The notes below the pieces were generated by a model. That model ran no database searches. It was not told where the DNA came from and worked only from the letters and a program-made list of their open reading frames with translations. From contig OX597821.1 of the NCBI GenBank assembly GCA_951406725.2, positions 57,970,001 to 58,034,000 of the forward strand: a stretch of DNA of 64,000 nucleotides, read 5' to 3'. Below, in pieces: positions 1,915 to 60,682 of this stretch (position 1 is its first letter; each line of letters opens with the position of its first letter). The DNA comes from Octopus vulgaris. Taxonomy: Eukaryota. The position numbers were made by a program, and so were the translations under genes.

Positions 1915-3286
1915 TAGATACAGACAAACGGACAGAGAAAAAGAGAGGGGCAATTATACAGATAGAGAAATTAAATATATCAAATTTTAATAGTTTTGGT
2001 ATGAAATACAAAATATGTATATATGTATATATGCAAAACAAAAGAAAGCAAAAAGTGGAGACTTTCAGACGATGAATGTTTAAGTATGAATATCTACGTA
2101 TTTACATTAACTAGTAAGATCCGTGAATATTTCACAGAATTAATAGTAAACCTATTGATTCATTCTTGTAATCTTTATCCAAAAAAAACTGAAAACGTAG
2201 TCTGTTTTGTGTCTGTATCAAAAGATAGTCGCTCGTCTGCTATTCATTGAAAAGTGAAGGAAATTTGAATACGATGATTACTTAATGCACAGTTAATACA
2301 TAAATAATATACTTTATACAAAATTTTATAGACTTAATACACAGCAGTCATAAAATATATATTCGCTCTTATTTTTTCTATTTTTCCCATAAACAGAAAA
2401 AAATTACATTTTAAAATTTTCATGGTTACAATTTCATATCAAGAAAACAATTTTTTTTATACAAAAGAAGTTATTTTATATACAAAATATAAGGATCGCA
2501 ATTTCACAGGGGTAAAAATTTAACGCAACATGGCATACTCTGAAAACCACATCGTTAGTAACTAGAAGCCAAGACGATGGGTCAGTGCTAATACACAGTT
2601 CGATTTGCAGATGATATAAAAAAAAACTTAGTTCAATTAAAACAAAATTACTTTTCACTATGCACTCACCATCATCCCACCTCCACCACCACTACCATCA
2701 CCATCATCTCTCACTCTCACTCTTTCTCTTTTAGTCTCTCTCTCTCTCTCTCTCTTTCATCTCACCATTAGAACATCTCCCATCTGCTAAAATTATATTT
2801 CTCACTTTCCGCTATATCACTACCTTCAACTCACTTTTTTAACCGCGTAATAAATATTACGTTCCCCCTACCACATGTCATGGACGCTTCTCTCTCCGTC
2901 TTTTGTTTCTCCATCTTTCTGCTTCACTCTTCGCCTTATTCTCTTTTTCTCTCTTTCCCTCTTTTTCGCTAATCATGTGTAAGTGTTACTGACGGGCTAA
3001 ATAACGCAATGACAAGCAGAATTATTACAAGATAGATCGAACTTACACAGGGTAAAAACGACAAAGAAAATTAAAGGGCTGGAAGAAAAGGTGTTATAAG
3101 TCCTATTAGATTTAATATATCTAATTTATCTGCATAATTGTCTCTATATCTGCTGAACTTGATCTCTCTTATGGTCATTCTTTACCCTCTGGATTAGACC
3201 TTATGTAAAGACATCGGAGTCTAAGTTTGATTCATTTGAGCACTACTAAATATCTTTTATACTGAGAATCTAAACATCTCATCTGT

Positions 3287-3362
<76 letters not shown>

Positions 3363-3390
3363 AAAAAAGCAACAATAATGGATCAAAATA

Positions 3391-3475
3391 TCGGTACAAT
3401 TGTTTCGTACGAAGACATCTTTAATAAGGCTACAAAAATTGCAGTAAATATAGATGGCTCGTACGCATCAGCCGA
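3391..3475 (-). ncRNA. Hammerhead-like ribozyme in a short TA-flanked insert
   Basis: Minus strand tcgg-CTGATGC-gtacga...tcgtac-GAAA-caattg-TA-ccga; three stems close, A9 replaced by C. Confidence 0.65.
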
Positions 3476-4581
3476 AAAAACATCCGAGATTTCCAAACAT
3501 CAAAGGGGGTAATGTTACAATCGTGAAACATCATGGAGAGTTCTATAAAAGTGGAAAAATTTAGATAACAAATTGGTTTCTAAGATTTCAGTTAGTATTA
3601 CATAGTATTACATAGTCATATATATATATATATATATGTAGTCTCCCGCCTCCCTTTTCCCCTCACTTACCACCCCACGACCCTACGTCTCCAACGCACC
3701 ATTCTTCGAGCTTTCCGTCGTCTCCAGTCCGACCCGTCCACTTCACACCTCTTCCCTAACCGACCCCTCCCCTCTTTCAAACGAGCCCACAACCTTCGAG
3801 ACCTTTTGGTCCATAGCTCCTTCCCTGACCCTACCTCCCAACCCGGCTCGTTCCCCTGCTCCCGCCCACGTTGCCGCACTTGCCCTTACCTCTCCAACAC
3901 CACCCGCCTCACTAGCACCCACCATCGACCCTATCCCATCATCCACTCCTTCACCTGCACCTCCAGCAATATTATCTATTGCATCTCTTGCTCTCTCTGC
4001 AATTCCTTGTACATCGGACAAACGGGACGCCGCTTGGCTGACCGGTTCGCGGAACACCTTCGTGACATCCACCTTGCGAACGACACACCGGTCTCACGCC
4101 ATTTCCGCTCCACCGGTCACTCCTTGCAACACCTATCTGTGTTCGGTTTGTCCTTACACAGAGGCCATCCGGATTCCCGTTTGCGCCGTGAACAGGAATT
4201 AATCTTCTCTCTTCGCTCTTATACGCCATTTGGTCTCAACTCTCCCCCCTCCTCATCTAACCCCCTCTCCCCCTCCTCACCTATCCTTTCTCCCCCCGAC
4301 CCCCACTTCTTCAGTCCTTCATCCTTTCACCCCTACTCCCCTTCCCTTCTTCCCTCTTTCTCCCTCCCTCTTCCCCTTCCCTCTGCTCCCTCACTCCCTC
4401 TCTCCCCTTCTCCCTCTTTCCTCCTTCATCCCTCTCCTCCCCTTCCTTCTCCCCATCCTCTCCTCTTCACCCTCCCCTCCCCCTCTTCTTCCCCTCCCCT
4501 TCTCCCCCTCTTCTCCCCTCCCCCTCTTCTCCTCACTACACCACATGACTTTACACATCACATCACATATGATGTGCCATA

Positions 4582-4910
4582 CTAATACACACACCAACTA
4601 ATACATACTAATACGTACTAATACATACTAGTACATACTAATACTTACACCAACCCTATACATACACACGTCCAGACCCCGCATACGCACTTATACTCTC
4701 TCACACACACACACACACACCTATACATACCAATACGTACTAATACATACTAATACATACTAATACATACACCAACCCCATACATACGCACGTCCAGACC
4801 AATCCCACGCACTGATACTCTCTCATACACACACACACACACACACACACCCTTATACATACTAATACATACACCAACCCTATACATACACATCCAGACC
4901 CCTCCCACGC
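4582..4910 (+). repeat. Nested repeats in PLE 3' UTR (tactaataca 10-mers within ~120-bp units); second copy near 9064-9392
   Basis: Repeated tactaataca and three acaccaacc(c)..catac..c(g/a)tccagacc units. Confidence 0.8.
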
Positions 4911-5072
4911 ACTTTTAGCTGGTCCCTCAACCCTATTATCTCCCCTTATTTCGCTCTCGCGTCTCATGTTTGATCTTTGACCTCTGGCCGAAATCAGATC
5001 GCCATGTTGATTCGTTAGCTACTGCACGCATTTTTTTCTCTCCTTCTTTCTGTGTTTTTCTCTCTCTGTGTA

Positions 5073-5110
5073 TCTTTCTGTTGAAGAGCGTAGGCTCGAA
5101 ACGTTAAAGA
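5073..5110 (+). ncRNA. Minimal type I hammerhead-like ribozyme, variant core
   Basis: tcttt-CTGTTGA-a-gagc(gtag)gctc-GAAA-cg-TT-aaaga: stem I, stem II hairpin, palindromic stem III. Confidence 0.65.
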
Positions 5111-5834
5111 CTTGTTTTATTTATATTTCCTGAGCGCCATACTAATACAATTGTTCGTTTGTTTTCCACCTGCCTTCGTCTTTTGTTTATTTTCATAAAG
5201 CTTCCCGTTATATATTATGCGCTCACGTGGTCTCACTTTCATCCTATATTCTACCAATACCACTATCAACACTTACCTCTACCTTGGATTTTCTTTACCT
5301 CTTGGATACTTACCATCGGCTGCACCTCTCTTTCGCGGATCAAAGTGACTTTGCATTGATGTGAAATCCTTAAAAAATATACCACGACGTCTACACATTT
5401 CTCACCTTGAACTTTCAACCTTGAACTTGTTCGCATAAACTGTCCCGTTTGTTGTATTTTTATTTTCTCTTATATTACCACTTTTTTTACATTCATTTCA
5501 TGCTTTCCACATTTTCCTGAATTTTTGTTCTCCTTTCCGTCTTTCTTCCCTCTCTGGATGTCCATACTCCGTTTCCTCTGCCTGCACCCCCTTTTTTTTG
5601 CCTCCCCCTCTCTCTGCTTCCCTTCTTTCTTTCCCTTTTCCGTTTGCCCCGTCTTTTCTGCCCCTATCGCTTACTTATCTAGTTTTTTCATACGATTATT
5701 ATTTTTTTATTTTTTTATTTTTTTTGTTTTTTTTGAACGTTTGTTTTTTCCCCTTTTTTCTATTTTTTTCATACGATAATTTTTGTTTTTTGTTTTTTTT
5801 GTTTTTTCGAACGTTTTTTTTCCGCTATCCCATC

Positions 5835-8800
5835 ATGCCGGATCCTAGGTCCTACCTCCTCACCCTCAATCACCGTTTGAAGGATCATCTACGTTCGCTT
5901 CCTGTATATCGCCTTCAGCCGTCCGTTAATCTCTCTCTACTTCTTTTTAAAAAAACCCGCTTCTCTAGCCATGTCTCTTTCCTAAGCCGCTGCCTACATC
6001 ACCGACTCATCCCTAAAGGTTTCCGCCTCCACTTCCACCCTGCTCTCCACTCGGATTCTTCCATCCTACCCATACTCCGCACCACATCTTACCGCCTTAT
6101 GCGGGCCACCATTCGCTCCAATCTCTCCAAACTACAAGCCATCAACCGCCTTCTTCCTCCTGCTTTCTCCACCTTCTTCTCCTCTCTGCCGCCTCTCTAT
6201 GCTCCAAACACGCTACGCTTCATTATCCATTTGAATCAACTCTTCCATCAATTTCTTTCTGATACCAAACTTCGTAAACTCCAATCACTCTTCCATTCCA
6301 CCCTACCCGACGCCACTACCCCAACTCCTCCACCACCCTTCTCCCCTCCCGATAGGCTCCATCCACCCACACCTAACCCCACTGCCCCTCCCTACAACCC
6401 CTTCTCCCCTCCCGTTAGGCTCCATCCACCTACACCTAACCCTACTGCCCCGCCCAACCACCACCCACACACCTCCCCAATCCCTCCCCCTCAGACCTCC
6501 ACGAGACCTACCACCCCTCCTACTTCTATTCCACCCACCCCTTCTCCACTTCCGTCTGTTGTTACCATTCCCCCCGATCTTCCCCTCTCTGCGGCTGAAC
6601 GCTCCGTCCTTGGTAGGGGTCTGCGTTTCATCCCCCTCACTCCATCCTGTAAGGAATTCCAGACGCGAGTTGATGTCCACAGCTTTGTGCGCCGTGTCCG
6701 GTTGGGGGCGCATTACCACGACTCGCCACCCACACCCAACGAAGAGGACGACTGCTTCACTGGCCTGGGCCGCCGACCATCCCCGTGGACGCCTGCCCCT
6801 GGCCAGATCCTAGCAGTGGATCTTTTCGCGGGCGCTTGTCAGCGTGCATTGGAGCGGTTCAACTTCTCCAGGCGCCAACGCCGCCTCAACATCTCCCCGG
6901 CTGAGCTCTTGGCTCTTCGTTCCCTCCAACGGCGCGCTGACATTATCATCAAACCGGCTGACAAGGGTGGAGCTGTAGTGGTGTGGCGCGCGGACCTCTA
7001 TAGGGCCGAGGCTTTCCGCCAACTCAATGACACCTCCTTCTATTCCCCTCTGCCCTCTAACCCCACACGTAGCTACCAACAGACGGTATCCTCTACTGTC
7101 CAAGACCTCATCTCGTCCTCCCGTCTCCCCCGCACCGCATCCAACCTAATTGTACGAACCCCACGTACCCCCACCATTTACTTCCTCCCCAAAATCCACA
7201 AACCCAACAACCCTGGCCGCCCCATCGTCTCCGCCTGTAACTGCCCCACGGAGCTCATCTCTAAATACCTCGACCGTGTCCTTGCCCCCCTAGTGGCATC
7301 TCTTCCCTCCCACATCCACGATACCAACCATGCTCTCCGGCTTTTCAACTCTTTCTCCTTTCCTCCCGGCTCCTCCAAAATCCTTTTTACTATGGACATC
7401 CAAAGCCTCTATACTGTTATCCCTCACCACGAAGGACTGCAGGCCCTTCGACACTTTCTTGACCTCCGCTCTAACCCTGTACCTGACACCTCCACACTCA
7501 TTCGTCTGGCCGAACTTGTCCTTACTCTGAACTGCTTCTCGTTCGCGGGCGAGTTCTACCATCAGGTCTCGGGAGTGGCCATGGGAACGCGAATGGGCCC
7601 CAACTATGCGAACCTGTTCGTTGGCTATGTTGAGGCCCAAATATTCTCTACTTTCACTGGTCCCACTCCTGAACTATATGGTCGTTATATTGACGACATT
7701 ATCGGTGCCACCTCACTCTCCCGCGAACATCTAGATTCCTTCCTCTCTTTCGTCCAATCTTTCCATCCAGCCCTCCACTTCACTTCCACTATCTCCAACA
7801 CCTCTGTCTCCTTCCTCGACATTTCGGTTAGCATTCTTGACTCCACTCTTACCACCTCCATTCACTACAAACACACAGACTCACACTCATACCTCAACTT
7901 CTCTTCCTCCCACCCAGAACACACCAAGCTTTCCATCCCCTATTCCCAATTCCTCCGTCTACGTAGGCTCTGTAGTGACGACCATGACTTTGAGACTCAG
8001 TCTCAACGTATGGCTCACCACTTCACCCTACGTGGATACCCCCTCACCACTATCCACACCGCCCTTGCCAGAGCACGGTCCGTGGACCGTGTATCTGCTC
8101 TCTCTCCCCGAACCCGCCCTGTAGTCTCCCGCCTCCCTTTTCCCCTCACTTACCACCCCACGACCCTACGTCTCCAACGCACCATTCTTCGAGCTTTCCG
8201 TCGTCTCCAGTCCGACCCGTCCACTTCACACCTCTTCCCTAACCGACCCCTCCCCTCTTTCAAACGAGCCCACAACCTTCGAGACCTTTTGGTCCATAGC
8301 TCCTTCCCTGACCCTACCTCCCAACCCGGCTCGTTCCCCTGCTCCCGCCCACGTTGCCGCACTTGCCCTTACCTCTCCAACACCACCCGCCTCACTAGCA
8401 CCCACCATCGACCCTATCCCATCATCCACTCCTTCACCTGCACCTCCAGCAATATTATCTATTGCATCTCTTGCTCTCTCTGCAATTCCTTGTACATCGG
8501 ACAAACGGGACGCCGCTTGGCTGACCGGTTCGCGGAACACCTTCGTGACATCCACCTTGCGAACGACACACCGGTCTCACGCCATTTCCGCTCCACCGGT
8601 CACTCCTTGCAACACCTATCTGTGTTCGGTTTGTCCTTACACAGAGGCCATCCGGATTCCCGTTTGCGCCGTGAACAGGAATTAATCTTCTCTCTTCGCT
8701 CTTATACGCCATTTGGTCTCAACTCTCCCCCCTCCTCATCTAACCCCCCTCTCCCCCTCCTCACCTATCCTTTCTCCCCCGACCCCCACTTCTTCAGTCC

Positions 8801-9083
8801 TTCATCCTTTCACCCCTACTCCCCTTCCCTTCTTCCCTCTTTCTCCCTCCCTCTTCCCCTTCCCTCTGCTCCCTCACTCCCTCTCTCCCCTTCTCCCTCT
8901 TTCCTCCTTCATCCCTCTCCTCCCCTTCCTTCTCCCCATCCTCTCCTCTTCACCCTCCCCTCCCCCTCTTCTTCCCCTCCCCTTCTCCCCCTCTTCTCCC
9001 TCCCCCTCTTCTCCTCACTACACCACATGACTTTACACATCACATCACATATGATGTGCCATACTAATACACACACCAACTAA
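5835..9083 (+). CDS. PLE polyprotein: reverse transcriptase, Cys-rich linker and GIY-YIG endonuclease
   Basis: First in-frame ATG at 5835 (MPDPRS) of ORF 5598-9083; motifs IKPADKGG, FLPKIHK..PGRPIVS, TMDIQSLYT, GVAMGTRMGPNYANLF, RYIDDI, FLDI, CSRPRCRTC, NIIYCISC..C..LYIGQTGR..R..EH, REQELI, PFGLN. Confidence 0.95.
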   Translation: MPDPRSYLLTLNHRLKDHLRSLPVYRLQPSVNLSLLLFKKTRFSSHVSFLSRCLHHRLIPKGFRLHFHPALHSDSSILPILRTTSYRLMRATIRSNLSKLQAINRLLPPAFSTFFSSLPPLYAPNTLRFIIHLNQLFHQFLSDTKLRKLQSLFHSTLPDATTPTPPPPFSPPDRLHPPTPNPTAPPYNPFSPPVRLHPPTPNPTAPPNHHPHTSPIPPPQTSTRPTTPPTSIPPTPSPLPSVVTIPPDLPLSAAERSVLGRGLRFIPLTPSCKEFQTRVDVHSFVRRVRLGAHYHDSPPTPNEEDDCFTGLGRRPSPWTPAPGQILAVDLFAGACQRALERFNFSRRQRRLNISPAELLALRSLQRRADIIIKPADKGGAVVVWRADLYRAEAFRQLNDTSFYSPLPSNPTRSYQQTVSSTVQDLISSSRLPRTASNLIVRTPRTPTIYFLPKIHKPNNPGRPIVSACNCPTELISKYLDRVLAPLVASLPSHIHDTNHALRLFNSFSFPPGSSKILFTMDIQSLYTVIPHHEGLQALRHFLDLRSNPVPDTSTLIRLAELVLTLNCFSFAGEFYHQVSGVAMGTRMGPNYANLFVGYVEAQIFSTFTGPTPELYGRYIDDIIGATSLSREHLDSFLSFVQSFHPALHFTSTISNTSVSFLDISVSILDSTLTTSIHYKHTDSHSYLNFSSSHPEHTKLSIPYSQFLRLRRLCSDDHDFETQSQRMAHHFTLRGYPLTTIHTALARARSVDRVSALSPRTRPVVSRLPFPLTYHPTTLRLQRTILRAFRRLQSDPSTSHLFPNRPLPSFKRAHNLRDLLVHSSFPDPTSQPGSFPCSRPRCRTCPYLSNTTRLTSTHHRPYPIIHSFTCTSSNIIYCISCSLCNSLYIGQTGRRLADRFAEHLRDIHLANDTPVSRHFRSTGHSLQHLSVFGLSLHRGHPDSRLRREQELIFSLRSYTPFGLNSPPSSSNPPLPLLTYPFSPDPHFFSPSSFHPYSPSLLPSFSLPLPLPSAPSLPLSPSPSFLLHPSPPLPSPHPLLFTLPSPSSSPPLLPLFSLPLFSSLHHMTLHITSHMMCHTNTHTN

Positions 9084-9554
9084 TACATACTAATACGTAC
9101 TAATACATACTAGTACATACTAATACTTACACCAACCCTATACATACACACGTCCAGACCCCGCATACGCACTTATACTCTCTCACACACACACACACAC
9201 ACCTATACATACCAATACGTACTAATACATACTAATACATACTAATACATACACCAACCCCATACATACGCACGTCCAGACCAATCCCACGCACTGATAC
9301 TCTCTCATACACACACACACACACACACACACCCTTATACATACTAATACATACACCAACCCTATACATACACATCCAGACCCCTCCCACGCACTTTTAG
9401 CTGGTCCCTCAACCCTATTATCTCCCCTTATTTCGCTCTCGCGTCTCATGTTTGATCTTTGACCTCTGGCCGAAATCAGATCGCCATGTTGATTCGTTAG
9501 CTACTGCACGCATTTTTTTCTCTCCTTCTTTCTGTGTTTTTCTCTCTCTGTGTA

Positions 9555-9592
9555 TCTTTCTGTTGAAGAGCGTAGGCTCGAAACGTTAAAGA
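9555..9592 (+). ncRNA. Second copy of the minimal hammerhead-like ribozyme
   Basis: Identical to 5073-5110. Confidence 0.65.
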
Positions 9593-9689
9593 CTTGTTTT
9601 ATTTATATTTCCTGAGCGCCATACTAATACAATTGTTCGTTTGTTTTCCACCTGCCTTCGTCTTTTGTTTATTTTCATAAAGCTTCCCG

Positions 9690-9739
<50 letters not shown>

Positions 9740-10089
9740 GATGGGATTCTTTCAGTTTCATTTACCAAATCTATTTACGAGGATTTGGTCTGCCAGAGGC
9801 TATAGAAGACACTTTCCCAAGATGCCACGCAGTAGAACTGAACCTGGAACCATTTGGTTTGGAAGCAAGCTTCTAATCACACAGCCACGCTTGTGCTTAT
9901 TGTAATTCTGTGTCTGCGTGTGTGTGTCTGTGTGCTTTATTAATAGTCGGCAGGATTTATAGAATGGTTCAAGGACCGAGAGTTTCGACCATTGAATCAC
10001 CTGTAAATTCTAACGATTATTAATAAAAAATCATTTACACTTGCAATAATATACGAATGTTTTGCGTACGTATTATTACTTGTACATAT

Positions 10090-11270: not shown

Positions 11271-12051
11271 TACGAGTCGGAGAGTGGCCGTAACGAAGCA
11301 AAGCAATTCGAAATTCAAAACTAACTACTCATGACTCCCAAGTCAATATATGTGTGTGAGGAGTTATGCGCATGAATGCACAAATGTCTATGTGTGTACG
11401 TATATGTATATAAATATATGTGTGTGTGTGTGTCTATGTGTACATATATATATACATATGTACATACAGAATATAATACTCATCGCACACATAATTACGT
11501 GCATTTAAAGACAGGAGAGAGAGAGAGGGTGACTGTGTGTGTGTGTGTTGGTGTCTAAGAAAGGAGAATTGATAGAAAGGGAAGATGATTGACAGAAACT
11601 ACTTAAAAGAAGCATTTTGGATCCTTAAAGCAAGTGAAGAGAAAATCGGAAATTTTCTCTACTTGCCGTTACCAATGTCAATCCCTTCTAGAAACTATCA
11701 TGTCAAATCGTCACCTAATTAGATGGTGCGCTGTAGAGTAGCTACCCCTGACAGTCGCATATCAGATTTAAGTGCTTTCCCTTACATTGTAGCCGTTAAA
11801 ACCCGCAGCAACAATATTCTATCGCATATTTGCGAAACTTGCAATGAGATTTCACCAAACAAATCATTATTCAGTACATCTCTTTCGTGCAGTTTACTCA
11901 ACCCTGAATAAGATGAGCAACTTCTCTGCGAAGTCAATCGATTTCTAATAAATATAAAAACCGACGACGTATATTGAGTACGGTTCTCTTCGCTTTGTGA
12001 ATAAATCGTGTACTTTTATGCTCCCCTACCCCAAATATATACATACATATA

Positions 12052-15000
12052 TATTCTAGCCATCACTCAACACCATCCTATGCTACTACCCCAGTGCACC
12101 AATTCCCCACATTGCTGTCACTAACACACAAAAAAAATCCAAGCCCCCTGCAACAGTCAAAACCAGCCACTACACTAACCTCCACATTTCTGCTCAATGC
12201 ACAAGGTGTCAGCCCTTCCATCAATGCACAAAAATGGAAGGTCCAATTCATTGAAGACTGGGTTGGTAACCATCCACACTACATCCCTTTCTTCATCCTC
12301 ACTGAGACCCACCTTGACAACTCCCATTTGGAAGCCGAAGTGAGAGTGAAGAATTTCACAACCATCCGCGCGGATCGTATCGGCAGAAGGAAGGGTGGAA
12401 CTGCCATTTTCCTGCATGATTCGTTTACGGCACATGGAAATAGCATATTCTCCAACGGCTACTGTGAATCAGTCACCGTGCACAACAAAGCCAATGACCT
12501 GACAGTAGTTGGGCTCTATAGGCCACCCCAAACACCCATACTGCGTTTTAAAGAATGCCTCAACAGCATTAAGTGCTTTATTCAACAGTGCCATTCTAGC
12601 AACCTACTCATGATGGGAGACTTCAATCTACCCTGTGCTGACTGGACTACAAACTGTTTGAAACCAAGCTCTCCCGCCTCAACCGCTGACAAAGAAGCAG
12701 TAGAGTCACTTTTCGACTTTATGAATGAGTTTTTCTTGTCCCAACTTGTCCTTGCACCAACAAACATCAGAAGAACATTTTGGACTTAGTGTTTAGTAAC
12801 CACATTAACACTATACATAACATTACAGTAGAAAAAACCCTTCTTTCAGACCATGACATGGTTCTCTGTAACATGAAATTCCACCAGCCGAAAGCTAATC
12901 CTAGTGACCTCCCTCCAGCCCACCCATTTGATAACATGGATCTCCATAATGCCAACTGGGATGCAATCAGGAACGAGCTATCACATGTTGACTGGTCTTT
13001 TACACATACACACATCTCCACCAACAATAAAACATCTTGGCAGATCTTTGTAGACACCGTCACAAACATATGTGCAAAACACTCCCCACCAAGACCTGTG
13101 AACAAAAAGTGCAGAATCCCCCAAAACAGAAAAACTATTATCAGAAAAATAAAAAGAACAAAAAAAAATTAACAAACTAAAATACTGCCAACAGCAACAC
13201 ACACATTCGACAGCTATCGCACTGCTTGAATCCAAAAAATATAACCTCCAACAATGCATGAAGACCCTCATCAATAACCAAAGATCAGTTGAGGAGAAGT
13301 GGGCCATTGAAAAAATTAAACTCAACCCCAAAGTGTTCTTTTCATTTGCGAGGAAATACAGGGTCACTGTCTCCACTGTTGGCCCTCTAATTGATGAAAA
13401 TGGCACTCTCCAAGATAATGCCAAATCCATGGCCGAGATACTGCAGAAACAATACTGCTCTGTTTTCAGCAATCCTGATATGGCCGATCTGGGCTGTATC
13501 AGTGATGTCAACCCCCAACACACTATATTGGACATAACGTTTGGTGCCCCTGATGTCTTAGCGGCGATAAACGAAATAAAACACAATTCAGCAGTAGGCC
13601 CCGATAGGTTCCCAGCTTGTGTCCTGAAAGTGTGTCGACACCAACTTGCATCTCCCCTTGCTAATCTGGGGAGAAACTCACAGTCTGTTGTCCCAGTTTT
13701 CAAAAAGGGAAACAAGTCCCTTGCAGTGAACTACCGTCCGATCTCACTCACCTCTCATATCATCAAGGTATTTGAGAGGGTGGTGAGATCTCGAATAACC
13801 CAATTTCTAGAAAGCAACAGACGGCTGATCTCTAACCAACATGGGTTCCGTAATATAAGGGACTGCCTAACGCAGCTCCTGCATCACTTTGATGACATTT
13901 TGAGAGCTTTGGGAGAGGGCTCCAACCCCGATGTCATCTACCTTGATTTCAGCAAGGCCTTCGACAGGGTTGATCACAAGATCCTATTGAAAAAACTATC
14001 CAACATTGGTGTCTCTGGAAAGTTACTGAAATGGATCAAGTGTTTCCTGACAGACAGATCTCAACATGTAGTTGAAGGAGTAAAATCAAGCCAGCCAAAG
14101 TCAGTAGTGGCGTTCCGCAAGGCACTGTGCTGGGCCCACTTCTTTTCATCATCTACATTAATGACATTAATGACATCATCAAGCACAGCAACATAAAAAT
14201 CTTTGCAGATGATTCCAAGCTCCAGAAGGTCATAAATGAGGCGAGTGACCGGACATGCCTTCAGTCAGATCTACTGGCTGTTATCCAATGGGCAGAAAAG
14301 AACAATATGCTGCTGAACGAGGATAAATTCGAGTTAATCCACTTTGGAAAAGAGGATGCCCTGAAACTCCCATACTCCCTTCCTTCAGGTGAAACACTCG
14401 TGGCATCCAACAACATCAGAGACTTGGGAGTAATTGTGGACAACAACATAAGCTGGGCCACTCATATAAACACCAAAGTTGACATGGCCCGCAGAATGTG
14501 TTCCTGGATTCTCAGAACTTTCCAGTCGAGAGATATCCACACCATTATCCTTCTCTTCTCCACTTTTGCCCGACCCCACCTTGAATACAGTTGTCCACTG
14601 TGGTCTCCCCACACAAAACAAAGTATCATAAAAGTTGAAGTCAATCACAAAAAAGATAGATGGCATGACAGGCCTCGACTATTGGGGTCGACTAGAAAAG
14701 CTAAAACTTTATTCTCTCCAACGTCGCCGTGAGCGCTACATCATCTGCATGATGTGGAAAATATTCCATCAGCATTGCCCAAATGATGTTGGCATCACCT
14801 TTAAGGTACATCCAAGGCTTGGGCCCCGTGCCATCCGCCCACAACAAAAATCGCACTCTCATCTCATAACAACAATACGGCACAATTATTTCACCTCAAT
14901 TGGCCCCGCTCTCTTTAACATTACACCAAAACACATTAAAATAGAAACAGACCCTATAGGGTTCAAGAAGTCTTTGGACAGATTCCTTCAAGAAATTCCG

Positions 15001-15160
15001 GATAAACCCCCTACATCCGGATATGTCTCTGTAAACAATAACTCTACTAGCATGGGCCATAGTGCCCAAATTCTGACTTGAAAGACTTCACCAGGTGGTG
15101 CTATTAAGTTAGACATGGCCTGGGCCAATAATGGCCGAAACCTATCAAAGTATCAAAGTA
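12052..15160 (+). mobile_element. CR1-group LINE, 5'-truncated, ORF2 (APE endonuclease plus RT) frameshifted
   Basis: ORF pieces 12094-12789 (LTETHL, GLYRPP, MGDFNLP), 13258-14196 (NYRPISLTS, QHGFR, YLDFSKAFDRVDH), 14127-14732 (LGPLLFIIYIND, FADDSK), 14635-15081 (LYSLQRRRERY); tail (tatcaaag)2 followed by TA-rich repeat. Confidence 0.92.
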
Positions 15161-22996: not shown

Positions 22997-23653
22997 TAAC
23001 TATATATATATAGTTAATCCAAACAAGAAAACACAAAAAAAAACAACAAAAAAACACAACAACGCGAGGACGTGGAACAAATAAAGTATTATTGGACGCT
23101 CAGGAAAGAAGGGAAGAAGGAATATATATATACATATGCATACACAGTGTGTGTGTGTGTATTGTGTGTATGTTCCTAATTCTATTTTGCTACAGCATTA
23201 ACTCTGTTGCGTCCCCCTTGCAAATTTTCTTTCTCCTTCTCTTAAACTGTTTCTTAGCTTAATACCTCTCTCAATCACACTCTCTCTTTCTGTGTGTGTG
23301 TCTCTCTCTCTTTCACACACGCCCCTCTTTCTCTCGCTTTCCCTCCCCTATCTCTCTTTCTCTCTCCATGCACACAGGACCCACTGACACCGCCTTACTT
23401 CCATTCTATCCTATTTTGATATTTCTCTCACACACGCACTCTTTATCTTTCACTGGCTTCTTTATTAATCTACACACACACACACACTCCCACTCTATCA
23501 CACACACACACTCCCACTCTATCACACACACACACTCCCACTATATCACACACACACACAAAAAGAAACACGCCGAAACTACTTTCTTGTTTTACTTTCA
23601 CTATCTTTTGGGCTATTCCTACTCTTCATTCTTCACCAATTTCACCTACCTAC

Positions 23654-30990: not shown

Positions 30991-31539
30991 ATGTATGTGT
31001 GCATGTATGTATATGTGCATGTATGTATGTATGTATGTATGTATGATGTAGTTTCCAGCTTCAGCCAGGAAATGATTTCTAATTAAAACATTTGTTTAAC
31101 ATCTGTTAAAGAAGAATTTGGACAGAATTATATAGGCACATAGGTCGTGCACATTCCTTCAGACAGAACATCACATGCTGGTTGATATGAATTTTGATAG
31201 ACTCGATAATGAAGAGTCTCTTCATTAGAGAGACATGACTTAAACCTGATGGCCTCGTGCAACAATGCAACATTGTAGTTGTATAATAGATTTCAGGTGA
31301 GTGAATATGGAATTCAATAAACAAATTTCTTCATCGATTTCACATGGTAAAGAAGCCATTGTTGAAACGTGAGAAAACAAGTGAGAACTACGATTTAACC
31401 TACTTTAACCCTCCATTGATTTGATATTATACTTTAAATCTAATATTCAAAATATGTCTATACGTGAGTGTGTTTGTGTGCGTGTGCGGGCTCGCATGTG
31501 CGTGTGCGGGCGCGAATGTGCGCGTGTATGTGCGATAGG

Positions 31540-32331
31540 TAAATTGTCGACATTATACATTTTCAATTTTGCGCATTGTTTTTGGTTTTGTCGAATACAC
31601 AGTATGGTAGGATCAGAAAAACAGCACCATGATACAATTCAGTCAACCAGAAATTTGGAAACGACGCACTGTTCAGTTGGGCATTCGCACCGGAAGCTCG
31701 AATACGAACATTTCAGTGTTGGGTGTCAATCTGAGTCCCTAAAAGAAGTACCGAGAGTAATAAAAATCAAACATCCAGTCAACTTCATGGTGTTTGTAGT
31801 GATCACTAGTGATGGCGACGCTATACCTCCGTTCATCTTCTCACACGGAGGTAGTGCTGCCCTGGGTCAAGAGGGTAGCTGTTGGAAAACCCTATGTCTG
31901 GCAATAGGACTCTGCACCATGTCATACAAGCAGGAAAACCGAGTCATGGCTGTCAGACAATTTCTGCGACCACATCACCCCTAACATCTAGCCACCTAAA
32001 TCCCCAGACTGCAACACCCTTGGTTATTATGTGTGGAGTGCAGTTGTGTGAGAGACCAACAAAATTCCTTGTGACAGCCAAGATGAACTGAAGACAAAAA
32101 GTATGGCAGCAATCACCAACTTAAACAAGGAGACCTTCCAAAAGATTTGCAGTAGATTCCGAATTCGTCTGGAGTCCGTGGTTGAAGCCAATATGGATTT
32201 TCTTGAATAAATTTACTCTTTAATATTTCAAGATATGTTTATGTAATTTTGGTAAATATATCTGTTAAAATGAGATGTCAGTGTTATTTTCATTTTTGCG
32301 CGATTTAGACAATTCATTTACCTCACCCAGT
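31540..32331 (+). mobile_element. Degenerate Tc1/mariner-superfamily transposon
   Basis: KHPVNFMVFVVITSDG..PPFIF, then P..SPDCN.L.YYVW and C-terminal RFRIRLESVVEAN.DFLE. Confidence 0.75.
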
Positions 32332-34373: not shown

Positions 34374-35284
34374 TCAGCTCATTCAGTTCATTCCGTGCTA
34401 GCTCGCCTATCAGAGTATATATATATTCACCATAATGGTGATTAATTTTTTTAATTTTTATGCGCCCTTTTCAAGCTTAGCCAGGTTCATGGGCCCGGTT
34501 TCCCGGTTTCTTTGGCATATGTGCCCCCCCACCATCTGAACGAGACGCCAGTCCTTCGCAGCGTTACTCAAGAAACTGGAAGGAAGAGTGAGAGAACGTT
34601 GGGGCGAAAGAGTACAACAGGGGTCGCCACCACCCCCTGTCGGAGACTCGTGTTTCTGCTCCATAAACACACACAACTCCCGGTCTGAGAATCGAAACCG
34701 TGATCCTCCAACCGCGAGTCCGCCGCTCTAGCCACTGGGTCATTGCGCCCCCACCTGGATTATTTAGCAGATTGCTAATGTGTATACAGAAAATTAATAA
34801 ATAAAAACAGCTGTTTACAATATTTTACCGTAAATTACTAAATGTCTCTCAGTCCATTTTCAGTTTTTTTTATTCTATTTGTGTGTGTGCGTATGTGTGT
34901 GTGCGCGTGCGTGTGTGTATCTATGTGCGTGTGTGTGAGTGTCTGTGTGTTTATGTGTGTTCGTATGTAGATAGATAGAGAGAGAGAAAGATAGCGTTAT
35001 AGCAGGGTATGTAAGAAATATATAGTTAAAATTATCTACATATCTGTTGACGTGAGGAAAGGCGTAGGTGGGAGCATAAAAATTAAGAAATAGAAGTAGT
35101 AATCAAAACGAATTCGTCAAAAGTTTAATGGTGTCTGTTAAATATGTAGAAGGATAATTGATGAAAACAGAAATAATTAAGACTATTCAGACCACCTGAA
35201 ATATATTGAAAAATTACCTATGAGGCGAAATCACACACATGCATGCATACATACATGCATATATATATATATATATATACATGT

Positions 35285-35422
35285 GTGTCTGTGTCTTCTC
35301 TATTCCATTCCGTTAAAGAGCGTAGGCTAGAAACGTAAAAGACTTTTTCATGTTTCCCAAACTAATACACATGGTTGTTCTTCATATACCCGTGTTTTTT
35401 CTTTTTCTTTAAATTTCAACTA
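35285..35422 (+). mobile_element. Diverged solo 3' end related to the large PLE; another remnant on minus at 20530-20590
   Basis: aagagcgtaggctagaaacgtaaaagact matches the 5073-5112 motif. Confidence 0.7.
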
Positions 35423-35901
35423 TATATATTATATAATTAATTTTATTTTTTCTATGTTTCTTACATATTGGTGTTACCATTCAAAGCGATGTATGCATGG
35501 ATTAAAATTTTATAAAACTTTTATCTTCTTTTCTCCCTCTTTAATCGTTTGTTGAGTTTACATAGGATACATGTTCTATAAATGCTCATAACACACCTTA
35601 TACTTGTAACATTTTCGTATTTTTTTAAATACTTACAAGAGTAAGGTACTAATTCAATATGAAGAATCTCTCTCTCTCTATATATATATACATATATTTT
35701 TTATTTTATAGAAGGAGTTTCTACAGGACTAGAACTGTTTCATTCAGATGAAAAACACCTTTTACCAAGTCAAAATGAACAATTAAATTACACGATCTAG
35801 AAAATTACATATAATAGAAATATTTCAAATAAAATAACAATAATATACCGATGATTAAGTAAATTGCAAAATAATAATAAAAACGTATATATTTGGTAGA
35901 A

Positions 35902-36065: not shown

Positions 36066-36593
<528 letters not shown>

Positions 36594-47437: not shown

Positions 47438-47645
47438 TTGTGACCGCGTGTGTACCGTTGGCGATATTTTTCCTCCGTCTTCCCTTCATGGATCTTTCCT
47501 TTTCCTATGTTTCTGACAAAGAGCTTCGCTCGAAACGTTGAACCCTCCTTCTTTCCTTCTTTCCTGAGCGTCCAATAATACTATACTTGTTCCACGTCCT
47601 CGCATTGTTGTTTTCTCTTTGTGTTTTCATGTTTGGATTAACTAT
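47438..47645 (+). mobile_element. Solo PLE 3' end with hammerhead-like motif (47509-47543); shorter minus-strand relatives at 18936-18990 and 23011-23120
   Basis: gttt-CTGACAA-a-gagc(ttc)gctc-GAAAcgTT-gaac, then ttcctgagcg as in the large PLE; TA-flanked. Confidence 0.7.
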
Positions 47646-47967
47646 AAATACATATATATGTATATATATTATTACGAATTTTTTTCAGTAAGTCTTATTC
47701 AACAAAACGCCAACCAGAAATTGAAGTAGATATGTGAATATGCGCCGGAATAATCATTTAAAGATGTTTTTGTTGAATGTTGTTATTGCTTTTGTTGAAT
47801 AAAATTTATTGAAAAAAGGCGCCATCAACCTAATACACAGACACACACACAGAGGTACACATACATATGTATTCAGGTACACATTCATATGTATTCATAC
47901 ATACACACCCATGCTTATATATACAGATACGTACAAACATAAGCGCGTGTGTGTGTGTACGTGTGTG

Positions 47968-50429: not shown

Positions 50430-50726
50430 GCAACCCTCTTAAGTTAGAATTAGCCTGGCTGTGGAAAATGAAGGTGAAGACAGTACCAATTATCATAGGG
50501 CTCTTGGGAACAATATCAAAGGGCATCAAGGGGAATATAAAGGAAATTGGAATAGAGTACCCAGTAGAACTGTTAAAAAGGTTTGCATCCTTGGCACCGC
50601 CAGAATAATCGGGAAAGTATTAGGTTTACTGAAATGAATGGATAACATGGTACCGTGGGCTGCAGACAGCAAGCCCTCTACACATGTAAGACTCCAGGAG
50701 CACCAACAAAACCTGTGATAAAGAGA

Positions 50727-50727
<1 letters not shown>
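50430..50727 (+). mobile_element. R4/Dong-type 3' fragment (second family)
   Basis: LELAWLWKMKVKTVPIIIGALG..LGTARII; ends at (AAT)n. Confidence 0.75.
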
Positions 50728-51648
<921 letters not shown>

Positions 51649-59029: not shown

Positions 59030-60682
59030 ACATACACAACAGTCTCTCTATCGCCCCCATTCCACACAAAGAATTTTAACAATACCAAAAAACAACTGGA
59101 ATTAATAACATTTTCAGCTGATATAGGCATGGAATTTGGCCAAAAGGAATGTTCATATTTGGTTATAGAGCAAGGAAAGTCAGTCTCCCAAACCCAAAAC
59201 CTGTGCATCAACGATCTCTCTATCTCCCTATTCCACACATAGAATGTTACATGTACCTAGGCATAGACGAAAATGCATCATATGAAGGAACTGTGAATAA
59301 AGATAGAGCGACCCGAGAATAATACATCAGACTTAGGAAAACATGAGTCGGAACTCTCCTCTTACAACAAAAATATATCCCACAATGCATTTGCAGTACC
59401 AGTGCTGATCCGAACATTTGGGACACTTGATTGGTCTGTAGAGGAAATCCACTCCATAGATATCAAAACCCGCAAAATCCTGACAACAACTAGCAACTTC
59501 CACAGAAACAGTGATGTTGTTAGGCTCTACCTAAGAAGAAATGGAGGTGATAGAGGCGTGAGATTAGTGCAGACGGCCTTCGAATGCCGTATGGTATCAC
59601 TCAGGCAGCACCTGCTAAACAACAGCAGCAAAAATAAATATATAACTGCAGTGCTGAAAAGTGAATTCAGCAGCATTGTACGAGTTGGTAGTGAGCTCCT
59701 CAAGAAGCACTCTCTTCCTAATTATCTCCTATACAGCCCCAAAACAGTTGGGCTCACTTACCTCAGAGAAGACCTGGATGGAAAGCACTCAGCATACAAG
59801 AAAAAGACTACGCATGGGTATGTTGCCCGGAAGCTTGAAAAAGACAGTAGAATTGACACGAAGCATAGCCTCTCTTGGACACAAGACCACTACATCACAT
59901 CACACTGAGGGATATGCGTTTGCAATCCAGAAACTGGAGATTACCACAAAGTACCTGGTGAACAAGAGAGACAATGACAGTCTTGCAATCCCAAGATGCA
60001 AGCTCATGCGTTGGCTATGTCATGTTTCTGTGGAAGACATCATGCATGTGATTAGCAGCTGCCGTCACGGTACTACCTCCCTATGCGGCACGATGTTGTT
60101 GCTAAAACAATTTATAATGTCATCCGCAAAAAAGACTCTCCTGAAATAAACTTAGGAAATCCCTCTGTTATGGAATACATTCATAAACACCAACTCAAGG
60201 AATACTGAAGGAACATTCCTATCAAAACTTCTGTCAAATGTAAACATAACAGGGCGGATATTGCTGTTTGGGACAGAGATGCAAAGCTATGTACCATCAT
60301 AGAGGTCAGCTGCCCAGCAGATATAAATACCTGTTTGAAAATCAAAGAAGAAGCGGATGTCTATGGACAACTGCTTCGAAACCTCCAGCTTCTATATCCA
60401 GATTACGAATTCATATTCGTACCAATAATAATCGGAGCACTAGGTTTTGCTAGTAAATGCTTAAAGGAGAATCTAGATAAACTGGGATTTTCAGAAAGAG
60501 AAATCAACCGGCTGATTCACACAAGTGCAATCTGTGAGTGGAACAGTAAAAATATGCAAGACTTTTCTCAAGTTCCAAATGTGAATTTTTTTGTGTTAAC
60601 TACATCCCAAAAATGGAACCTTGTATTATTGTTGGAAACCGGCTCCCTCCTCAGTGGAAGATTTATAATAATTAAAAAATAG
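59030..60682 (+). mobile_element. R4/Dong-like RLE non-LTR element, truncated and frameshifted
   Basis: DIGMEFG, NAFAVPVL..TFG.LDW, RLYL.R.GG.RG, KHNRADI, IEVSCP, VPIIIGALG. Confidence 0.88.

Follow-up and report, generated by a model that had tools for sequence, protein, structure and literature searches.

The Neptune clade of Penelope-like elements (PLEs) reportedly goes back to Arkhipova in 2006. Canonical PLEs with an endonuclease (EN+) are listed with a DKG motif, a GxKF/Y-type motif and a CCHH finger, while a CX2-5CxxC linker marks Neptune and Nematis and is described as absent in Penelope and Poseidon; a microsatellite bias of Neptune is noted as well (PMC8557442). Minimal hammerhead motifs are known from the clade, as in a Neptune of Acropora digitifera that carries two of them 3033 nucleotides (nt) apart (PMC4209133 Table S1), and the function of the PLE hammerhead is presented as a still open question (PMC8557442). 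The element described here lies at 3638-9697 of a 64,000-nt stretch of the Octopus vulgaris genome (GCA_951406725.2, contig OX597821.1, positions 57,970,001 to 58,034,000), which is called the window below. Its identity as a PLE is virtually certain. It has the tested features of canonical C-terminal EN+ PLEs with the Neptune/Nematis linker, and its sequence makes Neptune likelier than Nematis as its clade.

The element is one more intact Neptune-type element, and its architecture, as well as the hypothesis of a circular RNA intermediate, has already been published. An octopus genome is credited with 336 recently active PLE insertions in 31 families (PMC13282606 Table 1). The new details are a hammerhead core with U at position 6 and an open reading frame (ORF) that runs 119 residues past the usual end of its homologs. 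It is proposed below that the insertion was probably made from an RNA, likely left uncut by the hammerhead, through target-primed reverse transcription.

A probably recent partial tandem in (TA)n

The insertion is a canonical partial-tandem PLE in (TA)n, in which a full copy is preceded by a partial copy. It is bounded by (TA)10 at 3618-3637 and (TA)24 at 9691-9738 and is 6060 nt long, that is, 1.35 tandem units of 4482 nt. Because T3637 is common to the (TA)10 flank and the element, the left end is either 3637 or 3638. Local alignment of 3637-5215 with 8120-9697 gave no substitution over 1577 aligned nt, in four blocks without gaps (624, 31, 222 and 700 nt) whose offsets are 4483, 4484, 4483 and 4482, for a period of 4482-4484. 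The two copies differ by a single C at three places, extra at 8744, at 4292 and at 4515, all within C runs. The preliminary description of this DNA had reported such repeats of about 1.58 kb with single-C differences, along with an intact PLE of very low repeat divergence and an uninterrupted ORF for reverse transcriptase (RT) and endonuclease, and these observations were borne out.

The absence of substitutions sets a 95% upper bound of 0.19% on the divergence of the copies. If the rate given in PMC13282606, 0.0036 per site per million years, holds here, their separation would date back less than about 0.26 million years, although gene conversion or polishing would mimic such an age. The insertion is likely recent and was likely made in one event; an active element and a polymorphic insertion are both plausible from the sequence.

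Homopolymer indels are a typical error pattern of long reads, and the copies differ in such indels alone. This would be accounted for by a false duplication in the assembly, or by two older copies made uniform through polishing or gene conversion. Such an explanation is nevertheless considered very improbable, as TA runs adjoin both clean ends, published elements normally have this layout, and the ORF, open for 963 codons as far as its final conserved motif, has every catalytic residue. Near-identical sequence also exists outside the assembly, in runs of six studies (five, if one of them is the assembly source). In 20 of the 24 listed sequencing runs (six studies, three organism labels), 0.68-0.83 of 501 sampled 31-letter words from 3365-8119 were found, which corresponds to about 98.8-99.4% identity if substitutions alone lose words. 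A homogeneous family is therefore present in other samples, a result that concerns the family and not presence or absence at 3638-9697. The three organism labels could stand for related species, label variants or recent transfer, which are indistinguishable here. No RNA run is among the listed holders of these words, which says nothing on expression.

The single ORF encodes 1082 amino acids, with no stop or frameshift through the RT and endonuclease. Its order is an N-terminal helical domain, a proline-rich linker, GxRF, DKG, the RT, a thumb/linker region, a zinc linker and GIY-YIG. Pfam places RVT_1 at residues 454-643 (E 1.4e-7, above the cut-off) and GIY-YIG at residues 874-907 (E 0.006, below the cut-off). 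A homolog search with residues 240-965 as query returned at least 368 proteins with E 1e-20 or better among 8000 scored candidates. The best relatives are 55-57% identical among the 120 matches listed, and the few named ones come from shark, snails, coral, anemone and sea urchin. In alignments with homologs, D376-K377-G378 is invariant, G262-L-R-F265 is present and the RT motifs are kept, including IDD at 619-621; the first Met aligns with the starts of 14 homologs. The zinc linker, CX4CX2C, is formed by C836, C841 and C844 upstream of GIY-YIG, and the CCHH finger of the endonuclease by C880, C883, H917 and H923. Y876, Y887, G889, R898, H902, E947 and N963 are kept in at least 90% of 84 aligned proteins. 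The conserved linker between thumb and finger has about 100 residues and would fit the unreduced type, as judged from this length.

A structure model of residues 1-966 reached a mean pLDDT of 88.6, with one disordered proline-rich stretch at residues 157-234. An RT closest to that of telomerase is a further feature of canonical EN+ PLEs. Telomerase RTs took ranks 1-5 and 8 of the top ten Foldseek matches in the PDB, at low TM-scores of 0.26-0.29 on the query, and a PDB sequence search with the protein gave no match at E 0.1. Inside the proline-rich linker, 6336-6462 is a two-copy, in-frame 63-nt duplication (90%).

The C-terminus needs separate mention. A terminal PxG[LIMVC]N motif occurs in 105 of the 120 listed homologs; 102 of these end within 10 residues past it, two within 30 and one after 115. 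The octopus ORF continues for 119 residues past its PxGLN motif, or 114 if the frame is followed in the upstream copy. In both copies, another frame has a stop (4258 and 8741) five codons past the motif, just after a run of six C. The tail is either a real frameshift or a consensus error common to both copies, and the true C-terminus is uncertain; the term 'intact' holds for the RT and the endonuclease.

With Neptune PLEs, the octopus element shares the single ORF of RT and C-terminal GIY-YIG, DKG, CCHH and the CX2-5CxxC linker, as well as the partial tandem with pseudo-long terminal repeats (pseudo-LTRs), a minimal hammerhead in each repeat and the microsatellite target. It differs from them in its U6, its longer unit, a proline-rich insert of about 80 residues and the C-terminal extension, which is possibly an artefact.

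The hammerhead motif and its core

Each repeat holds one copy of the same minimal motif, with C3 at 5078 and 9560 and position 17 at 5105 and 9587. It consists of the core CUGUUGA followed by an extra A, stem II GAGC-GUAG-GCUC, GAAA and U17, and it has the minimal type I layout of metazoan PLEs, namely stem I, the extra nucleotide that separates position 9 from 10.1, G10.1-C11.1, GAAA, the palindromic 15.2-16.2 and UH. The 4-bp stem II, the extra A after A9 and the ACGU palindrome are also those of the Acropora Neptune motif. Position 6, however, is U at 5081 and 9563, which departs from the canonical core CUGANGA. The motif is classed, from its sequence, as a hammerhead-derived core variant and not as a canonical hammerhead.

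It had been noted earlier that identical minimal ribozymes lie 4482 nt apart, with RNA ends expected near 5105 and 9587, and that they could excise a unit-length RNA. The identity, the positions and the dimer-type minimal motif in each repeat stand, with the correction that the core is non-canonical. The duplication alone accounts for the distance: whatever lies in the last 700 nt of the repeat recurs 4482 nt away, so that the spacing is uninformative on excision.

The motif was located with a relaxed descriptor in which positions 6 and 7 were left free. Rfam gave no hammerhead at gathering score anywhere in the window, and none among 21 matches up to E 10 at a relaxed threshold in 3500-9800. 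The relaxed descriptor returned eight matches in 80 related metagenome loci, six of them with a palindromic stem III, and all six have A6 (two come from near-identical contigs). Ten shuffles gave 0-2 matches each, none palindromic. Two non-palindromic U6 matches with a three-pair stem II (L032 and L033) were set aside as probable chance, since shuffles give as many. A6 is likewise found in 56 of 56 motifs of PMC4209133 Fig. S3, counted by eye, where the descriptor required a conserved core. A literature search, which did not take in the paper likeliest to list position-6 variants, turned up no A6U in PLE hammerheads, and viral contigs gave no exact match to the U6 motif.

Two older remnants in the window carry the motif. 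The one at 35.3 kb, with 77% identity and decay at four further positions, also has U6, whereas A6 is found in the one at 47.5 kb. Judging from the single 35.3-kb remnant, U6 is probably an old lineage feature rather than a private mutation. As to its effect, changes at A6 are reported to lower activity, a natural A6C hammerhead cutting at less than 0.1 per minute in agreement with earlier mutagenesis (PMC3088659), and minimal PLE hammerheads are described as poor cleavers as dimers even when they have A6 (PMC4209133). The U6 change would likely slow the self-cutting of the predicted ribozyme. Folding energies do not separate it from its A6 relatives: as drawn, the dimer loses 6.7 kcal/mol in stability against a pair of folded monomers, and the penalties of the relatives, from -0.1 to 13.1, span this value.

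Several other readings of the motif were discarded. A register of UUGAAGA would restore A6, but it leaves no stem I and one stem II pair, and homology with the 47.5-kb remnant settles which register is right. A hairpin in which U6-U7 would trap the core in an inactive form is predicted (47% of the ensemble, z -1.29), but it does not discriminate, since the core pairs in much the same way in A6 relatives and their dimer penalties are comparable. U17 as a second defect was dismissed, as it occurs commonly in the published set of 56 motifs. Another hammerhead-like stretch, at 4955-5020, has a core that does not fit and folds no better than shuffles (z 0.38).

The hammerhead lies 730 nt upstream of the ORF start. 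A cut RNA would be uncapped, with 729 nt and four upstream ATGs before the ORF. In viral hammerheads, self-cleavage is reported to aid translation (PMC13725137).

Related structures were seen elsewhere. At about 36410-36470, the descriptor matches both strands, with a non-palindromic stem III, which points to an inverted repeat that has a CUGAAGA core-like word. In L021, a 98-nt segment directly after the hammerhead (3471-3568) is absent from the 99.6% identical L022. A related element, L037, was assembled with a 127-nt terminal repeat (1-127 and 3192-3318) and a unit of 3191 nt, an arrangement expected of a tandem or a circle; the relaxed descriptor found no hammerhead in it.

The 3' end and the template of the insertion

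The right end of the insertion lies 110 nt downstream of the predicted cut site. The unit reads TATATAT at 5209-5215, and the right end runs from the same 7 nt into (TA)n. Four older remnants of this 3' end are present in the window (Table 1), and all four end at the equivalent point with TA-rich sequence on both sides, the flank windows being picked by eye. A first profile, made without the two shorter remnants, scored these at 33.4 and 16.2 bits; with a single-sequence query, the remnant at 20.6 kb scored 13.6 bits, against at most 7.9 in 20 shuffled windows. Their 5' ends lie about 110 and about 58 nt before the cut, and 6 and about 30 nt after it (partly by eye, and too few at four to decide). 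Both repeat copies and two of the four remnants span the predicted cut site. These TA-embedded pieces derive from at least two older families, and such short remnants may be very abundant in the genome.

As the main element and all four remnants share a 3' end past the cut, reverse transcription appears to start at a fixed internal site and not at the ribozyme cut. No stable hairpin was predicted at this site (z 0.20 and 1.79). The Poseidon element PAc of Anolis carolinensis offers a comparison: its hammerhead is reported to cut at +26 and its RT to start at +111-118 (PMC11167929), that is, 85-92 nt past the cut by subtraction. The two elements are alike in their AT-rich target, their end about 90-110 nt past the hammerhead cut and their tandem arrangement. 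Unlike the octopus element, PAc is without the zinc linker, its hammerhead overlaps the start codon, and its RT start is not homologous to the target, whereas the last 7 nt of the octopus unit match (TA)n.

From a linear RNA cut at both sites, a complementary DNA (cDNA) of 110 nt would be expected; the 6060-nt insertion needs a template that is continuous across both motifs. Uncut tandem RNA is most likely this template, the other options being a circle and a template jump. It is proposed that the GIY-YIG endonuclease would nick (TA)n, as suggested by what is known of the family and by the window's five insertions between TA flanks. The nicked end would then anneal and prime at the internal site observed 103-110 nt past the hammerhead, at TATATAT. 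Copying would take the RT past one hammerhead, along the full 4482-nt unit and past the other hammerhead, to a stop 1.47 kb further, inside the ORF of the upstream unit, where the observed structure ends. The template would most likely come from a tandem donor by read-through transcription. The hammerhead itself may be slow, possibly protein-assisted or partly decayed through U6, and is likely unnecessary for insertion.

The uncut template is favoured because hammerhead mutants inserted normally in vitro, Naiads form tandems without hammerheads, and the U6 core is defective. The only in vitro system is reported to show no effect of ribozyme mutants on insertion, and no RNA-seq reads that end at the cut site are described there (PMC11167929). 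Naiads are stated to form the same partial tandems without hammerheads; they share (TA)n targets and the CX2-5CxxC finger with the octopus element, and they differ from it by an N-terminal endonuclease, DKA and the lack of a canonical hammerhead (PMC8557442), the octopus element having a C-terminal endonuclease and DKG.

A number of points weigh against this proposal. Reaching 1.47 kb above the first hammerhead requires a donor with at least two full units or a host promoter, and the pseudo-LTR promoter (reviewed in PMC6765202) cannot alone yield the needed template, while one unit would be enough for a circle or a jump. The perfect preservation of both stems, I and II, and of the palindrome suggests that the fold is under selection. 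With the element protein present, the anole ribozyme is reported to cut, so that weak intrinsic activity does not equal no cutting, and the biochemical study concerns Poseidon and not Neptune (PMC11167929). The published A6 set is biased by its descriptor, one remnant begins 6 nt past a predicted cut site, and the support comes from assembled sequence instead of reads.

The preliminary description had suggested that excision and circularisation of a unit-length RNA could explain the tandem. According to this model, the ACGU-paired hammerheads would cut at 5105 and 9587, the 4482-nt RNA would be ligated, and the RT would run from 110 nt past the junction for 1.35 rounds. The insertion is exactly as expected from such more-than-unit copying, a single-unit donor suffices, and a dimer can be drawn with full stems. 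Ends 110 nt past the cut, however, fit a circle, uncut read-through RNA and a template jump alike, so that they do not single out the circle. The succession of excision, circularisation and more-than-unit reverse transcription is also not new: it was proposed by Cervera and De la Pena (2014) to explain the tandem arrangement (PMC4209133) and is repeated in PMC6765202. Besides the U6 core, the model has to contend with cut sites 4.5 kb apart, a dimer less stable than its monomers (a penalty that is not distinctive among the relatives), and a ribozyme that was dispensable in vitro, with anole RNA-seq reported to lack ends at the site (PMC11167929).

Small retrozyme circles with canonical type I hammerheads do exist in animals, including molluscs (PMC7229834). 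The literature search found circles for short retrozymes alone and none shown for a full autonomous PLE. Animal non-LTR retrozymes resemble the octopus element in their type I hammerheads in direct repeats, and they are thought to be mobilised by PLEs (PMC7229834; bioRxiv 10.64898/2026.07.22.740005). They are described with non-coding units of 170-400 nt, canonical efficient hammerheads and demonstrated circles; the octopus element, with its autonomous 4482-nt coding unit and minimal variant motif, falls outside this group. On balance, the circle is an unlikely source of the insertion. Since a ligated junction would be identical to the genomic repeat sequence, divergent reverse-transcription PCR would presumably fail to tell a circle from a tandem transcript.

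A combined reading, in which a protein-assisted dimer of U6 hammerheads yields a 4482-nt circular RNA and nicked (TA)n primes by annealing to TATATAT, is decidedly unlikely. If true, it would provide the first demonstrated circle of an autonomous PLE together with a core variant that lineages about 23% apart have tolerated and retained, and the short TA-flanked pieces that start just past the cut would be genomic footprints of cleavage in vivo.

These pieces also bear on a jump from a linear cut RNA. Here the RT, starting 110 nt inside the 5' end, would run off and jump to the 3' end of the same or another unit RNA, aided by stem I, which pairs the 5' and 3' ends of the unit RNA; failed jumps would leave solo pieces. 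One remnant, 23121-23005, has TA runs to either side and starts 6 nt past the cut site predicted for its family, and the one at 20600-20526 is also wholly past the cut. The remnants are four in all, though, and the two that reach about 58 and about 110 nt upstream (by eye) cross the site, while random 5' truncation would leave short pieces as well. Further, no scar or added base is seen at 5105/5106 or 9587/9588, and the remnant that begins at +6 belongs to the A6 family and not to that of the main element. A template jump is decidedly unlikely, and reverse transcription of an uncut read-through RNA is retained as the probable route.

A young U6 family beside an older A6 family in one genome allows a cheap comparison of the pile-up of 5' truncations at the cut site. 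With its fixed 3' end and visible TA match to the target, the element is also a Neptune candidate for study in vitro, where Poseidon alone has been studied so far.

Feature coordinates and neighbouring sequences

Table 1. Positions in the window of the element, its parts and its older remnants.
Feature	Position	Strand	Remark
(TA)10 target microsatellite, left flank	3618-3637		no discernible target-site duplication
5' pseudo-LTR	3638-5215	+	5'-truncated upstream unit, from about residue 763 of the ORF through endonuclease, 3' region and hammerhead
Internal tandem	4587-4872; second copy 9069-9354	+	122-nt period, 2.3 copies, 86% matches
Minimal type I hammerhead motif 1	5073-5110	+	predicted cut after 5105; stem I 5073-5077/5106-5110, core 5078-5084, U6 5081, extra A 5085, stem II 5086-5097, GAAA 5098-5101, palindrome ACGU 5101-5104
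Post-cut segment, 110 nt	5106-5215	+	ends in TATATAT (5209-5215); end is the element 3' terminus and putative RT start
Unique 5' untranslated region	5216-5834	+	48% T; upstream ATGs at 5217, 5359, 5500 and 5558
Single ORF, RT and GIY-YIG	5835-9083	+	1082 amino acids, from ATG to stop
3' pseudo-LTR	8121-9697	+	3' third of the full unit
C-terminal extension	8724-9083	+	Pro/Ser/Leu low complexity, 119 residues, after the conserved PxGLN motif
Minimal hammerhead motif 2	9555-9592	+	identical to motif 1; predicted cut after 9587
(TA)24 at right end	9691-9738		overlaps terminal TATATAT of the element
Right flank	9739-9900		dispersed SINE-like repeat, 78-81% identity to four other window sites
Short remnant of post-hammerhead segment	20526-20600	-	between TA runs
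Remnant 92% identical to that at 47.5 kb	23005-23121	-	TA runs on both sides; begins 6 nt past the predicted cut of its family
Older remnant of the same 3' end	35278-35428	+	97/126 aligned bases (77%); decayed U6 hammerhead; in TA runs
Older remnant	47483-47650	+	103/132 aligned bases (78%); A6 hammerhead; in TA runs

Within the 5' untranslated region, a possible intron at 5345-5682 was recognised by eye (GTGACT, a pyrimidine tract and TAG). Its removal would take out three of the four upstream ATGs.

Other mobile sequences are present in the window. A frameshifted long interspersed element with endonuclease and RT lies at 12001-15081 on the + strand and is presumably CR1/L2-like. The fragments at 50646-51329 and 59297-60682 are taken to resemble the C-terminal restriction-like endonuclease region of R2/R4/Hero-type retroelements, and the fragment at 31409-31984, we assume, resembles a Tc1/mariner transposase.

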